Below are positions 29,113 to 33,260 of a stretch of 64,000 bases of DNA, piece by piece. Numbering within the stretch: position 1 is the first letter of the stretch; each line of letters opens with the position of its first letter. The notes below the pieces were generated by a model. That model ran no database searches. It was not told where the DNA came from and worked only from the letters and a program-made list of their open reading frames with translations. The DNA is from Alphaproteobacteria bacterium (GTDB lineage: Bacteria > Pseudomonadota > Alphaproteobacteria > UBA828). The position numbers and the translations under genes were made by a program. The DNA lies in assembly GCA_965237415.1 (NCBI GenBank), contig CBDEFM010000001.1, positions 128,001-192,000 of the forward strand, given 5' to 3'.

Positions 29113-29250
29113 GTCCTCTCCTCCGGCGCTCGGCGCCTTCGGTCGCCTCAACGCAGCCTAAGGAGCCAAGCGCCCCACCCTGCCCTCTAAATTGGGAGAT
29201 TATATACGAAGGTCACAACGACTTGGACGCAGTCAGTGACGTGCACGGCG

Positions 29251-29280
29251 TTGACCGAGGACCACCCGGGGCGATACACT
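29251..29280 (+). promoter_or_regulatory. Sigma70-like promoter, probably leaderless
   Basis: TTGACC-N18-TACACT-N7-ATG(29288). Confidence 0.6.
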
Positions 29281-29287
29281 ATCCTCT

Positions 29288-29521
29288 ATGACCGAGGAAG
29301 AGCGGAAGATATTCAACGGCCTCGTCGCCGAAGTTTTGGTCCTGAAACTCGCTTTACTCGATCTGTACCGACACGTTCACCGAGACGGAGCCCGGGACCG
29401 ACTGGCCGCACTTTTTGCAGATGCCTTCCCCGATGCGTCGGGGGATCCAGAAGAGATCGAAAAACTCACTGCGTATTCGGGAGCAGCCAAAAGACTCTTG
29501 GATGACATCCGGGACTACTGA
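29288..29521 (+). CDS. Small helical hypothetical protein (IS cargo)
   Basis: 77-aa ORF directly behind the promoter module; no SD. Confidence 0.6.
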   Translation: MTEEERKIFNGLVAEVLVLKLALLDLYRHVHRDGARDRLAALFADAFPDASGDPEEIEKLTAYSGAAKRLLDDIRDY

Positions 29522-29577
29522 TTCTCGTTCCATGTCTGGTACTTAGGAAGAACGCCGCAGAATATAATTGGCCGGGG

Positions 29578-29808
29578 TCACGTCTCCGGGTTCTCTGGTA
29601 TGGGCAATCTTTCTCGTAGAATGTCGGCTATTGAGTCGATTCCGAGGTAAAGAAGATCGAGACGTTGATTCACTCCGTCGAAATGGTCATCAAGATCCTT
29701 TCTCAGGGATTCTATCTGTTTGACGACCGCGTCCATTCTGACCTCAAGGCGTCCCATTCGCTCTTCGAGTTTACTTAGACGTTCAGCGGGGGGTTTCTCG
29801 TCGCTCAT
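29578..29808 (-). CDS. Small coiled-coil hypothetical protein (IS cargo)
   Basis: Heptad pattern LSKLEERMGRLEVRMDAV; own promoter module. Confidence 0.65.
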   Translation of the reverse strand: MSDEKPPAERLSKLEERMGRLEVRMDAVVKQIESLRKDLDDHFDGVNQRLDLLYLGIDSIADILRERLPIPENPET

Positions 29809-29815
29809 GCGGGAG

Positions 29816-29845
29816 AGTGTATCTCCCGGAGTGAATCGGGGTCAA
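29816..29845 (-). promoter_or_regulatory. Sigma70-like promoter, probably leaderless
   Basis: TTGACC-N18-TACACT-N7-ATG(29808) on minus strand. Confidence 0.6.
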
Positions 29846-30027
29846 GCCTCCGGATCCCTAACCACCTTTACCGGTCGCAGCACCGCCCGCGCCAACTCTT
29901 CCGGAGTGGCGTCGATACTTACATCCTCCCGTAATTCGGCTCGGGTCGGCTGGTAGGTATGGGGTTTGACGCGGATCGTGGGCCGCGTCGACTTCCGCTT
30001 CGGCTGGGGCTTCGGTCGACTCGTCAC
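29842..30027 (-). CDS. Small hypothetical protein (IS1595-associated)
   Basis: 61 aa; basic N-terminus, YQPTRAELREDVSIDATPEELARAVL; same strand as transposase. Confidence 0.55.
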   Translation of the reverse strand: MTSRPKPQPKRKSTRPTIRVKPHTYQPTRAELREDVSIDATPEELARAVLRPVKVVRDPEA

Positions 30028-30115
30028 CCCGGCACGGTGCCATCGGTTCGTTTCTCAGTCCACTCCTTTCGTGACCCCTTGACCCCCGATCCCCGATCCG
30101 CCTACGCTCGTCCCC

Positions 30116-30367
30116 GTCAACGTCATGGGTACCCGCAGGTCGGGTCGCCCGCCGAATACAATAGCCTCTAGTCACCTGACACTGAAGTTGAGATCATTTT
30201 CAATTGGCAGTGTCGTCACACTAAGTCGCTCTATTGTCGAAGAATGTGGTCGTGCAATATAGTTAGCTTTATGTGGCGAACTTCAGATTCAGGTGACTAG
30301 CCCGGCGCCGGGTAGCTCCCGACGCTTAGGCGAATAGGCGGGGCATCACGCAACCCGTGACGTTGAC
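30116..30367 (+). ncRNA. Putative structured ncRNA (about 123 nt after removing the MITE), interrupted
   Basis: Promoter TTGACC-N18-TACGCT-N7 places +1 at G30116; 15-bp terminal stem 30116-30130/30353-30367 with one G.U; nested stems; no convincing ORF. Confidence 0.45.
30168..30300 (+). mobile_element. 133-bp MITE, family A, copy 1 (CTAG-bounded)
   Basis: Ends CTAGTCACCTGACACTGAAGTT / AACTTCAGATTCAGGTGACTAG; AT-rich core; about 89% identical to 31107-31239. Confidence 0.85.
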
Positions 30368-30416
30368 AACGGCCCGGCACCAGCGCCGGGACCGGGACGG
30401 CTCAGCGGGGTGTGAG

Positions 30417-30929
30417 ATGAGATGGACGATGATAATGGTCACGGCATTCTTGGTGACGACCGGGGCCGTTGCGCAAGATAATGATGCGTTCCAGCAGTTG
30501 TCCAACTACCTGACGACGGGGGACCCCCTCCAGGAGGCCAACGGAATCGCCACCGCTCGCATCTATGACCGAACGGGGTGCGTCTCTGGGATGGACGACA
30601 GTCAAGGCGGTTACGTGCGGATCTTCTGGAATAACGTCGACCCCGCCGCCATTGAGGTCAAGTACCACTATATTCCAGGGGATGAATATCTTGGGACCAC
30701 GGGCGATAGAATCCTGGTGCTGATTCTTGCGGGAGATGAGACCGTCGTGGACGCCCAAGCGAAAAACGGGCTGCTCTACCTCAGTCTCGTCATGACCGGG
30801 GTTACACCGGGCCGTCACTCTCGGGTTATGCTACCGGTGTACAACTTGGACCCAGATCGACTGCGGCGGGCACTGGACATTCTGTACGCTCGGCATTGTA
30901 CCGGGACGAAGAGTGCCGCCGCGTTCTAG
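30417..30929 (+). CDS. Secreted hypothetical protein (IS cargo)
   Basis: MRWTMIMVTAFLVTTGAVA signal-peptide-like start; two Cys; ends CTGTKSAAAF. Confidence 0.6.
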   Translation: MRWTMIMVTAFLVTTGAVAQDNDAFQQLSNYLTTGDPLQEANGIATARIYDRTGCVSGMDDSQGGYVRIFWNNVDPAAIEVKYHYIPGDEYLGTTGDRILVLILAGDETVVDAQAKNGLLYLSLVMTGVTPGRHSRVMLPVYNLDPDRLRRALDILYARHCTGTKSAAAF

Positions 30930-30958
30930 ACCAAACCATCAAAACGGGAGGGTGTGTG

Positions 30959-31378
30959 GTGAGTGAACACGATTCGTATGACCCCAAAACCGTCGATTTT
31001 TTATTGAGGGCGTTGGTGAATTACGTGAGAAGTCTCCATGGACTTGACCTCACCGAGGAGGATTACCTGTTCAAGGCACTCGATGGTACCATCAAAGGCA
31101 TGATGCCTAGTCACCTGAATCTGAAGTTCACCACATAAAGCTAACTATGTTGAACGACTAAATTCTTCGACAATAGAGCGACTTAGTGTGGCAGCACTGC
31201 TAATCTATAACGATCTCAACTTCAGTGCCAGATGACTAGCTTGAACAATCCGAAGGGTCTTGACGTCAAAAAGGCCGAAGAAATCCGGGTTGATCTTGAA
31301 ACCATCTGTACCATTCTGCAAAGGCTTCAACATGAGACTCACGATCAAGATAGTCTTCCGATTTCGGTGGATCTCTAA
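30959..31378 (+). pseudogene. Hypothetical cargo ORF split by MITE A copy 2
   Basis: GGGAGG RBS; removing the MITE plus one CTAG restores ...KGMMPSLNNPKGLDVKKAEE...ISVDL* in frame to TAA 31376-78. Confidence 0.7.
31107..31239 (-). mobile_element. 133-bp MITE, family A, copy 2
   Basis: Reverse complement aligns without gaps to 30168-30300 (about 15 mismatches by eye); CTAG at both ends. Confidence 0.85.
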
Positions 31379-31411
31379 CTTCGGGGTAAACGGCGTTCTC
31401 TTCCATAACAA

Positions 31412-32389
31412 CTATTTAGTCGGCTTCGCCCCCGACTCAAGTCCGTTATCCGCGATCAGGTCTGCGTAACGCAGCCGTTCCCCCATCAGCCCCGTCACAA
31501 TGCTAGCCATCTGGTCGATGGTATCCGCGTTCCGGGCGTTGTGACGGCCTGCAAACTCGGTCACGTAACGGTCGAGGTGCTTCGGGCTCATCTTGTGGTA
31601 AGTGACCACGTATCCCCGCTTCATCAATGACCAGAAGCTCTCCAGGCCGTTGGTGTGCGCTTGGTCCCTAACATACTCCCCGACCGAATGCCGGACGGTC
31701 TCGTGCGTATAGGGGATGCCTTTGTAGGCTGAAGCCTCGTCGGTATAAACGGTGCCCCCAACGGCGACGTGGTCGCTCACAAACGCCTGTATCGTCCGCC
31801 TTGTCGTATCCTCCACCACCCGCGCATGAATACGATTGGTGTCCCGGTCCTTGAGGCCAGCGACGATGGACTTACCGGCGCCTCCGGTACCAACATGCTT
31901 CCGGTTTTTGACGTGCTTATTTTTCTCCAAACCGCCGATGAAGGTCTCGTCCGCCTCTACGGGACCGGTAAAACCTGTGCGGTCCTGCACGAACGATTGC
32001 CGGAGCCGATGGGCCAAGTGCCACGCCGACTTCTGCGTGATCTCGAGATCGCGATGCAGCTTCATGCTGCTAATTCCTTTGAGGCTCGTGGTCACCAGAT
32101 AAATGGCGATGGCCCAGGTCTGGTAACCGAGGTTCGAGCCCTGCATGACGATCCCGGTCCGCAGACTGAACATGGGGCGGTTAGGGCAGTCGCGGCACCG
32201 GTGCGTCATGGTCCGATGCCGGATGCCGCTCTGGACGTTGAGGCTGCCGCAATGGGGGCAATAGGGACCGTCCGGCCATACCTGCGCTTCGAACCACGCG
32301 CGGGAGGTCTCGTCGTCGGGGAACATACGCAGCAGGGATACGAGGCCGATTCCCTCGCGGTCCCCCTTGCCTGGTGCGCTCTTGCCCAT
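31412..32389 (-). CDS. IS1595-family (ISXO2-like) DDE transposase
   Basis: CPHC..C..C Zn ribbon, KGISSMKLHRDL HTH, VEADETFIGG, VYTDE, HTNGLESFW; upstream TTGACG-N17-TACACT and AGGAGG. Confidence 0.95.
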   Translation of the reverse strand: MGKSAPGKGDREGIGLVSLLRMFPDDETSRAWFEAQVWPDGPYCPHCGSLNVQSGIRHRTMTHRCRDCPNRPMFSLRTGIVMQGSNLGYQTWAIAIYLVTTSLKGISSMKLHRDLEITQKSAWHLAHRLRQSFVQDRTGFTGPVEADETFIGGLEKNKHVKNRKHVGTGGAGKSIVAGLKDRDTNRIHARVVEDTTRRTIQAFVSDHVAVGGTVYTDEASAYKGIPYTHETVRHSVGEYVRDQAHTNGLESFWSLMKRGYVVTYHKMSPKHLDRYVTEFAGRHNARNADTIDQMASIVTGLMGERLRYADLIADNGLESGAKPTK

Positions 32390-32519
32390 CTCCGATCCTC
32401 CTGAATTGTGATCGGAGTGTAACACATCAGGAGTTGACCGTCAAGAGGAACTTTCTTCTAAAACAAATACTTAGGGACGGAAATCGGTGGCGATAAATAG
32501 GTGATTGCTAAATACTCAC

Positions 32520-32642
32520 ATGACTGACAAGATTTGGAACCAAATCAAGGAAGCCGGAGATGGAATCTTCGGCTTCCTGTACTCTACGGCCCCTGGCTGG
32601 ATGCTCGCTCTCGGGATCACGCTCGCCGTGATCCTCACTTAG
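32520..32642 (+). CDS. Putative 40-aa single-TM peptide (IS cargo)
   Basis: Manual translation MTDKIWNQIKEAGDGIFGFLYSTAPGWMLALGITLAVILT*; converges on 32645 ORF with 2-bp gap. Confidence 0.4.
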   Translation: MTDKIWNQIKEAGDGIFGFLYSTAPGWMLALGITLAVILT

Positions 32643-32644
32643 CA

Positions 32645-32998
32645 TCAGTCCTTCTTGGCGGCGTTCATGATCTTGGCGATGTCGTCACCGGTGAGCGCGC
32701 CACCCTTTCTCGTAGCAAACCAATAGGTCACGACGGCGGCAGCGATTGGTAGAATGGCGAAGAACAAATCCTTCGCCATAGCGTGCTCGCCTATCGCTAT
32801 GAAGTAGCCGGAGAATCCCGCCCCCGCCCCGAACAGGAAGAAGGCAGCACTGTACGTCACGCGCACACGGACCGCACTTCTCATCTTCTCGGTCTTGGGA
32901 TTCTGGTCTTGAGTCGAAGGCTCGCCACCCTCGCCGCCCGCTTGAACATCGGCCATCGAACTATACCTCTTCTTCGTGACGGCCCGCGAATCGGTCAC
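32645..32998 (-). CDS. Small two-TM membrane protein (IS cargo)
   Basis: Two hydrophobic helices, VTYWFATR; start may be the internal ATG (MADVQ). Confidence 0.6.
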   Translation of the reverse strand: MTDSRAVTKKRYSSMADVQAGGEGGEPSTQDQNPKTEKMRSAVRVRVTYSAAFFLFGAGAGFSGYFIAIGEHAMAKDLFFAILPIAAAVVTYWFATRKGGALTGDDIAKIMNAAKKD

Positions 32999-33260
32999 GG
33001 ACCGAGCCTTCTCGGTAGCACGATCAAGAGATGGGGCACAACCCCCTATGTGGAAGGTTGAGACGAAATCGTCGATTCGAGGACTAGGGACGGGGCGAAG
33101 GGCTAGATGTGGGGCATGGAACCAAAGGGTTGAGATGGATGATTCCGGGCAAATGTGACCTTCGTATATAATCTCCCTAAATTGCGGGGGGAGAGGGCAT
33201 GAGCAAAACGATACCTCGGGTGATTACGAGAAAACCGTGGGCACCGGCCACACACAGCCG

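Follow-up and report, generated by a model that had tools for sequence, protein, structure and literature searches.

Within a 64,000-nucleotide (nt) stretch of an alphaproteobacterial genome (GenBank assembly GCA_965237415.1, contig CBDEFM010000001.1, positions 128,001 to 192,000; hereafter the window, numbered from its first letter), a 3,982-bp insertion sequence (IS) of the IS1595 family carries several small passenger open reading frames (ORFs), one of which encodes a predicted exported protein of 170 amino acids. We consider it about 60% probable that the segment preceding this gene (30116-30393) is the 5′ leader of its messenger RNA, a cis-acting and probably bistable RNA of the type of the Xanthomonas small RNA (sRNA) sRNA-Xcc1, which in the window has been split by a miniature inverted-repeat transposable element (MITE). 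Taken by itself the window copy makes a weak case, and it is the comparison with relatives that establishes the RNA structure.

An earlier note on this DNA had proposed a structured RNA at this site, hidden by the MITE, and had suggested a search for homologues with the MITE-free unit; many copies were found in the genus. With the whole 4-kb element as query against 61 related genomes, the two halves of the unit were recovered repeatedly within the genus, adjoining and free of the MITE. Eighteen copies could be aligned from an upstream TTGAC box to a downstream ATG, with outer stems that differ in sequence and stay complementary, and a covariance model built from these 18 copies (R1) gave 82 matches, spread over 20 of the genus's 21 genomes at 1-13 in each. 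R1 finds two copies in the window's own genome, the MITE-split one at window 30260-30397 with 51.6 bits and an intact one elsewhere with 66 bits. In that only other copy (L031, G000:C2:3935070-3935218, minus strand), which may be a decaying leader, the outer helix is degenerate (−6.5 kcal/mol for the duplex of its arms); the gene behind it encodes a family 25 glycosyltransferase. A second model, which includes the outer helix P0 (R2), was without a match in 23 genomes from nine other genera of the same family and, among 150 genomes of the class outside that family, detected the leader in 7, a patchy distribution of the kind expected of something carried on mobile DNA; searched against plasmids by blastn, an intact leader copy had no match. 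The window copy itself, freed of the MITE, aligned end to end with a copy in a related genome (G003; 82% identity over 193 nt), and how well it fits the family was judged from blastn and MAFFT comparisons of this MITE-free sequence. Judged by the pattern of substitutions described below, the leader is a structured RNA of ~155 nt that belongs to a strongly conserved multi-copy family and is a real folded molecule.

The outer helix, P0, varies from copy to copy and remains paired. When every 5′ arm was combined with every 3′ arm, cognate duplexes averaged −25.3 kcal/mol versus −11.3 kcal/mol for non-cognate ones, and the cognate arm was the best partner in 53 of the 69 distinct copies. All 16 pairs (16/16) had changed on both sides and 91-97% of cells were paired in an R2-refitted alignment of 72 copies (the source of the pair counts given below), counts whose independence is overstated, as the structure had guided the alignment and the copies are related to one another. 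The non-Watson-Crick positions of 63 stems comprised 73 G.U pairs on the plus strand versus 5 A.C, which identifies P0 as a helix formed by RNA of the downstream gene's strand, and the structured plus-strand RNA of the earlier note is thus borne out by both the covariation and the G.U excess among relatives. That note had named one finding that would undo its proposal, namely that the outer stem is the terminal inverted repeat (TIR) pair of another old MITE; since the arms covary rather than keep their sequence, varying between copies yet remaining complementary, they are not transposon ends, and the flanks in the window are single-copy in the genome.

Inside P0 lies a conserved core, supported by RNAalifold and by the pair counts. 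P2 (CCCGCU/GGCGGG in the family) and P2a (GCC/GGC) were 99.1% and 98.6% paired, respectively, with a near-invariant internal loop (GAAUAnAACA opposite GAAUA) between them; P2b, a hairpin with a UAGC loop, was 94.4% paired, with 7 of its 8 pairs changed on both sides, and compensatory changes were present in all three helices. The 9-bp P1 (GUCGGGUCG with CGGCCCGGC) was 97.5% paired, its frequent variants all being standard pairs (U.G, U-A and C-G), while Pa was 91.7% paired and nearly invariant and P4 was 84.6% paired. For P3, a column-wise count, made in columns aligned for P0, gave 58% paired; the arm test gave −2.99 kcal/mol for cognate versus −1.64 kcal/mol for non-cognate combinations, and 0 of 2000 permutations reached the observed mean. 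Several pairings drawn in the earlier note from the window alone correspond to these helices: its GCCCGCC/GGCGGGGC stem is the conserved P2, its GCCU/AGGC stem is P2a, its A-rich bubble is the GAAUACAAUA / GAAUA internal loop and its GC hairpin at 30372-30390 is P4. Two others fell away, the CCCGG/CCGGG stem being no conserved pairing and competing with the conserved P2b, and GUCGGG having as its conserved partner not CCCGAC but CGGCCCGGC at 30370-30378, in P1.

At the window site, the 15-bp stem claimed previously was found as an inverted repeat (30116-30130 / 30353-30367) that is complementary at 14 of 15 positions, the odd pair being G.U on the plus strand, with the MITE inside it and the GC hairpin also in place. 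The MITE-free unit (123 nt; the window sequence minus the MITE and one CTAG, joined computationally) folds at −60.6 kcal/mol (z −3.9), and the minimum free energy fold of the window sequence with the MITE kept still includes P0 and P2. An Rfam scan of the window gave no match at the leader site (E ≤ 10) because the MITE splits the motif; the RNA does become visible only once the MITE is removed. No convincing ORF had been seen over the unit, and no ORF is conserved across the leader copies. A leader peptide was also considered and rejected, there being no conserved ORF and stops in all three frames in 43 of 72 copies.

The surroundings of the motif point to a leader rather than a free-standing RNA. 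Of 72 copies, 60 have TTG[AC] 34-40 nt ahead of P0, 49 have A at −12 and 53 have T at −8, and a strict promoter expression matched 27 of 72 copies versus 17 of 5000 random positions; the window's own site at 30080-30109 was absent from the list returned by a simple consensus promoter scan of the window. With boxes at a fixed distance, the transcription start (+1) is predicted at the base of P0, ~30116 in the window, and the previous placement of +1 at G30116, where the stem starts, is probable given the promoter conservation in relatives. Downstream, an ORF of at least 45 codons starts within about 110 nt in 71 of 75 copies, a Shine-Dalgarno (SD)-like motif is present in 68, and the start codon falls 13-31 nt past the RNA motif in 60 of 75. 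An SD site and start codon behind the motif argue that the RNA is the leader of that gene rather than something that serves the transposon as guide, decoy or antitoxin.

By their sequences, the genes behind the leader are diverse and mostly encode exported proteins or lipoproteins. Simple regular expressions detected a lipobox-like motif in 41 of 71 downstream ORFs and an N-terminal hydrophobic run in 56 of 71. Pfam gave no match for 46 of the 61 ORFs scanned (the ten outside the scan were mostly close paralogues, two short doubtful ORFs and a T5orf172-type gene of G004), and the matched cargo includes TbpB-like lipoproteins, T5orf172, GIY-YIG, rhodanese, subtilase, an outer-membrane beta-barrel and family 25 glycosyltransferase. 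The 170-amino-acid protein of the window has a signal-peptide-like N-terminus and no Pfam family, and a search for its relatives in the genome contigs confirmed none. One related genome (G020) has a homologous gene behind a homologous leader, as in the window, whereas G003 has the leader in common with the window but not the gene, and the homology between window and G003 stops just past P4.

Table 1. Features of the leader, its carrier and neighbouring elements in the window.
Feature	Position	Strand	Basis
IS1595-family element with passenger genes, 3,982 bp (29195-33176); position given with direct repeats	29187..33184		
Promoter-like module: −35 TTGACC 30080-30085, 18-nt spacer, −10 TACGCT 30104-30109	30080..30109	+	
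P0 5′ arm, outer helix (15-bp stem of the earlier note)	30116..30130	+	Inverted repeat, covariation
ACCCGC box (5′ strand of Pa), able to pair with CGGGU in the 5′ arm of P1	30131..30136	+	Minimum free energy fold, conservation
P1 5′ arm, GUCGGGUCG	30139..30147	+	RF02221 alignment in relative; 97.5% paired
P2 5′ strand CCCGCC, internal loop GAAUACAAUA, P2a 5′ strand GCC	30148..30166	+	
IS5-type MITE, 129 bp plus duplicated CTAG	30168..30300		Genome copies, 22-nt TIRs, intact relative
P2b hairpin (loop UAGC), P2a 3′ strand GGC, loop GAAUA, P2 3′ strand GGCGGG	30301..30342	+	
P3 alternative hairpin, CACG...CGUG; 3′ strand overlaps inner P0 3′ arm	30347..30359	+	
P0 3′ arm	30353..30367	+	Inverted repeat, covariation
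P1 3′ arm CGGCCCGGC (30370-30378), also P4 5′ arm; P4 hairpin	30370..30393	+	
Purine-rich ribosome-binding region and 170-codon cargo ORF, ATG 30417	30407..30929	+	
Second copy of the same MITE, inverted; cuts 3′ end of 80-codon ORF	31107..31239		
IS1595-family transposase, 337 amino acids	31412..32425	−	Pfam DDE_Tnp_IS1595 1.1e-36, Zn_ribbon_IS1595 6.1e-08

Two sets of helices draw on the same nucleotides. In the alignment columns, the 3′ arm of P1 is also an arm of P4, the 5′ arm of P1 is also used by Pa, and P3 and P0 have nucleotides in common, so that P0/Pa/P4 and P1/P3 are mutually exclusive. In one predicted state (state A), the long outer P0 would form together with P2, the 3′ hairpin P4 and Pa, the last tying up the 5′ arm of P1; in the other (state B), P1 would enclose P2 and P3 in an Xcc1-like fold that uses the nucleotides of Pa and P4 and of the inner P0 3′ arm. 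Changes in the arm shared by P1 and P4, read by eye from the alignments, include G to A, which turns a U.G pair of P1 into U-A, with the P4 partner changed from C to U in L065, L087, L088 and L095. The 3′ arms of P0 and P1 are only two nucleotides apart, a spacing that would favour alternation over a pseudoknot. The exclusive helix sets suggest a switch, and we propose that the leader would be transcribed from its own promoter (30080-30109) starting at 30116, that the invariant P2 loop (GAAUAnAACA / GAAUA) may be the recognition site of some factor or ligand, and that switching between the states could make the leader a cis-acting gate on the expression of whichever gene follows. Leader and gene together form a cassette that the window's IS1595-family element carries as a passenger.

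The only Rfam signal at the leader loci was RF02221 (sRNA-Xcc1), with full-length alignments at 28-34 bits versus a cut-off of 53. Genome-wide in the genus, RF02221 matches ranged from 21 to 33.7 bits (0 of 21 genomes over the cut-off), 12 of the 13 sub-threshold matches coincided with leader copies, and the best score elsewhere in the class, 48.0 bits, belonged to a shorter relative in a different family. Abundant (up to 13 copies per genome) yet under the Rfam cut-off, the family is missed by genome annotation. The leader has the architecture of sRNA-Xcc1, with a closing 9-bp P1 of nearly equal sequence, a P2 with the asymmetric loop AAUACAA / GAAUA and a small second hairpin, P3 (identified in the leader by the cognate/non-cognate test only), and both RNAs occur on mobile DNA, directly upstream of a gene. 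In contrast to sRNA-Xcc1, the leader adds a 16-bp covarying P0, a duplicated CCCGC box and a much longer P2b, and has P4 where Xcc1 has an ACCC-UUUU tail; no U-tract follows P1 or P4, an SD site and start codon standing there instead, and the leader appears to be an integral part of an mRNA, preceded by a promoter of its own and followed by a ribosome-binding site and start codon. On these comparisons of sequence and predicted fold, the leader family is a divergent, enlarged relative of sRNA-Xcc1 rather than a member of it. sRNA-Xcc1 is reportedly integron-encoded and transferred by transposons and plasmids (so the title of a 2011 article by Chen et al.). Published accounts describe it as an 88-nt RNA of Xanthomonas campestris, detected by Northern blot and end mapping (PMC2996969), locate it ahead of symE in the integron cassette that is most widespread in Xanthomonas (bioRxiv 10.1101/2025.06.18.660453) and report that Xylella expresses seven homologues, of which five lie in a genomic island (PMC12189769). 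Among the sRNA-Xcc1 titles listed by one search, which is no proof of absence, no alphaproteobacterial leader appeared.

The leader also resembles riboswitches and attenuators, having a conserved folded core, covarying variable stems and exclusive helices between core and start codon; unlike riboswitches, it has no terminator, a weak predicted difference at the ribosome-binding site and downstream genes of no coherent function. A number of observations weigh against the proposed leader. At the window site, the inner 93 nt of the MITE-free unit fold no better than shuffled sequences (z +0.27), the reverse complement of the unit folds equally well (−61.5 kcal/mol), and 15-nt inverted repeats with at most one mismatch within 300 nt occur at seven places in the 64-kb window; as the fold signal comes wholly from the outer stem and comparable repeats exist elsewhere, the single sequence alone is not beyond chance. 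A chance origin of the stem was accordingly not rejected from the window copy alone, and was rejected by the comparison with relatives. The MITE may have inactivated the window copy. Across the family, the near-invariance of Pa and P1 leaves little covariation signal in these helices. Constrained folding gives state A an advantage of ~12 kcal/mol over state B, and P0 and P1 might coexist as a pseudoknot instead of alternating. Predicted access to the ribosome-binding site barely differs between the states (0.49 versus 0.43, 59 copies); differences greater than 0.2 favour A in 16 of these copies and B in 4, and occlusion of the site, tried as the read-out of a switch, was set aside given so weak a predicted difference. 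No U-tract was found after P1 or P4 in the family's tails, so P4 is not a classical terminator, and the functional diversity of the cargo is unlike that behind a classical metabolite riboswitch. A further-reaching form of the proposal, in which the Xcc1-type core is an aptamer or protein-docking site for some cellular signal and the helix alternatives are a true switch, making the family an uncatalogued class-wide riboregulator that mobile elements, here IS1595 'transporter' elements, would carry to turn surface-protein and nuclease cargo genes on or off, portable and tolerant of insertions such as the MITE in its variable linker, seems to us doubtful.

5′ hairpins guard mRNAs against decay, and the leader could be the front of a constitutive cassette that does not switch, in which P0 stabilizes the mRNA as a 5′-terminal hairpin while the folded core insulates the ribosome-binding site from any cargo that follows. 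Such a cassette agrees with P0 beginning at the predicted +1, with its dominance of the energetics (the lead of state A given above) and with the high diversity of the cargo, the leader travelling with IS passenger genes. It leaves unexplained, however, the near-invariant core loops and the duplicated CCCGC box, the way in which P3 tracks the 3′ arm of P0, and the changes in the shared P1/P4 arm that keep both partners paired, and we regard it as unlikely.

The leader might instead be the source of a trans-acting RNA, terminated or processed to an Xcc1-like sRNA that acts elsewhere or, in the manner of IsrK, on its own read-through mRNA. The core fold common to leader and Xcc1 speaks for this, as do the confirmed Xanthomonas RNA and the expressed Xylella homologues cited above. 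IsrK (Salmonella Gifsy-1 prophage) and the C4 antisense RNA (phages P1 and P7) are comparable in being leader-encoded regulatory RNAs on acquired DNA with alternative structures. PMC4825925 has IsrK governing the translation of genes on its own read-through transcript, and a genome table in PMC12189769 lists C4, isrK and Xcc1 matches side by side in Xylella. At E ≤ 1, RF01394 and RF01695 (IsrK, C4) had no match in 18 + 13 leader-bearing loci, and the leader differs from both RNAs in having no terminator and no target site found complementary to its loops. With no terminator-like U-tract after P1 or P4, a start codon at a fixed short distance, and exposed stems that vary and show no common seed, a trans-acting product appears distinctly improbable.

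The leader that we favour as a cis-acting element stands, in the window, within a carrier that has all the parts of an IS1595-family element: a DDE_Tnp_IS1595 transposase, perfect 23-bp TIRs, extra ORFs and an 8-bp direct repeat (CTAAATTG, 29187-29194 and 33177-33184), which is presumably the usual duplication length in this family. Homologous element ends occur in G003, G004 and G020. In metagenome contigs from three runs and two studies, 29186 is connected to 33177, with 8 letters common to both sides (X1 and X2), or 29188 to 33179 (X3), joints whose sides are just 22-30 nt and for which the likeness threshold was lowered to 85; they are consistent with an empty site of the carrier and, being deeper than the element, tentatively suggest that the insertion is polymorphic and recent. 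With its DDE transposase, TIRs, flanking repeat and unrelated passenger ORFs, the carrier resembles a 'transporter IS', and IS1595-family members with passenger genes have been described (PMC3129680, citing Siguier et al. 2009); new beyond the portion of that literature surveyed is that passenger genes in this genus repeatedly share one structured leader. Further promoter-like sites in the element (TTGAC[CG], 17-18 nt, TACACT) lie at 29251-29280 (plus), 29845-29816 (minus) and 32444-32416 (minus), preceding a 77-amino-acid ORF, a 76-amino-acid coiled-coil ORF and the transposase gene; a promoter scan found 6 sites versus a mean of 1.8 in shuffles. In G003 and G020, tRNA-Sec-like and other tRNA genes lie 1-2.5 kb or less from leader copies (the tRNA-Sec-like genes at L013 4468-4555 and L019 2633-2723 scoring 56 and 53 bits, cut-off 47) and may mark integration hot spots.

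The earlier note was right that the RNA of the window rides in an IS1595-family element, and had further inferred an RNA of the transposon itself. As a guide, antisense transposase regulator or antitoxin, such a transposition RNA would accord with the IS1595-family transposase gene found within the ~1.5-kb flanks of 20 of 74 leader copies (versus a chance rate estimated at 1-2% from 17 transposase homologues in the 4.75-Mb genome) and with the geometry of the window, where leader read-through would be antisense to the transposase gene. Against this, 54 of 74 copies have no such gene nearby, its position and orientation relative to the leader are not fixed (13 upstream and co-directional, 6 convergent as in the window, 1 divergent), leader copies stand ahead of other genes, and at one locus (L048) an IS1595-family IS has inserted into a leader and carries none. 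A transposition RNA is thus largely refuted and, in our estimate, very improbable: the leader is enriched in IS1595 elements as the front end of passenger genes (at two loci examined, L076 and L093, one set of inverted repeats encloses the transposase gene, the leader and its cargo), and is neither confined to these elements nor located as a component of the transposition machinery would be. The note had also known of no described RNA component for IS1595 elements; the RNA does have a described relative, in sRNA-Xcc1 (RF02221), and is not an IS1595 component. Equally hard to credit is an element acting as DNA, either a nested old MITE or an attC-like single-stranded site that shuffles cargo, to which the variable sequence and constant structure of P0, the different cargo behind near-identical leaders in the window and G003 (homology ending after P4) and the occurrence of sRNA-Xcc1 in integron cassettes might lead, but against which stand the covariation of the arms, which are hence not TIRs, the single-copy flanks, the RNA-like fixed distances of promoter and start codon, and P0 ends that do not fit what we take to be the attC R''/R' consensus.

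The insertion that splits the window leader (30168-30300) is a MITE by its TIRs, 4-bp target duplication, high copy number and lack of a transposase. The 133-bp sequence has 37 full-length copies in the 4.75-Mb genome, all with CTAG...CTAG at the ends; one copy has CTAT...CTAT, which marks the four terminal bases as the target duplication. Its assignment to IS5 rests on the CTAG target, which we take to be an IS5-family trait, and not on transposase comparison. The insertion site lies in the variable linker between P2a and P2b, and a MITE-less relative (G019, L016/L054) is continuous across it with one CTAG; the insertion left every conserved helix of the window leader intact. When the exact MITE-free window leader was sought in four metagenome contig runs, bridges over 30166-30329 came only from other MITE-free family members, and none of the four runs showed the MITE's true empty site. 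Another leader copy (L048, G013:C3:31765-34920; region 1527-2923) also contains an insertion, a simple 1,260-bp IS1595-family IS with perfect 24-bp TIRs that parts the P0 5′ arm (2905-2923) from the remaining leader; the two are independent insertions into leaders. Elsewhere in the window's genome, pairs of matches to the MITE ends lie ~1.19 kb apart (C1:409235-410423; C2:1590559-1591749, 3661899-3663087, 3623726-3624914 and 3755565-3756753) and may be the full-length IS that mobilizes the 133-bp MITE. The MITE holds a promoter-like site (TTGTCG, 18 nt, TATAGT; 30234-30263, plus strand) that points into the leader's 3′ half and on to the cargo gene, and from which a 5′-truncated leader transcript could arise. 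After the cargo gene, an 80-codon ORF (30896-31138, plus strand) runs into the second copy of the MITE, whose sequence has probably replaced its 3′ end.

The window copy thus amounts to a natural experiment, a 129-bp insertion within an RNA that spares all of its conserved helices. If the switch is true, the family would suggest for sRNA-Xcc1, on record since 2010 but lacking a mechanism, the testable function of a cis-acting gate, and what IS1595-family transposons move would be not bare genes but genes already furnished with a promoter and a structured RNA that controls them.

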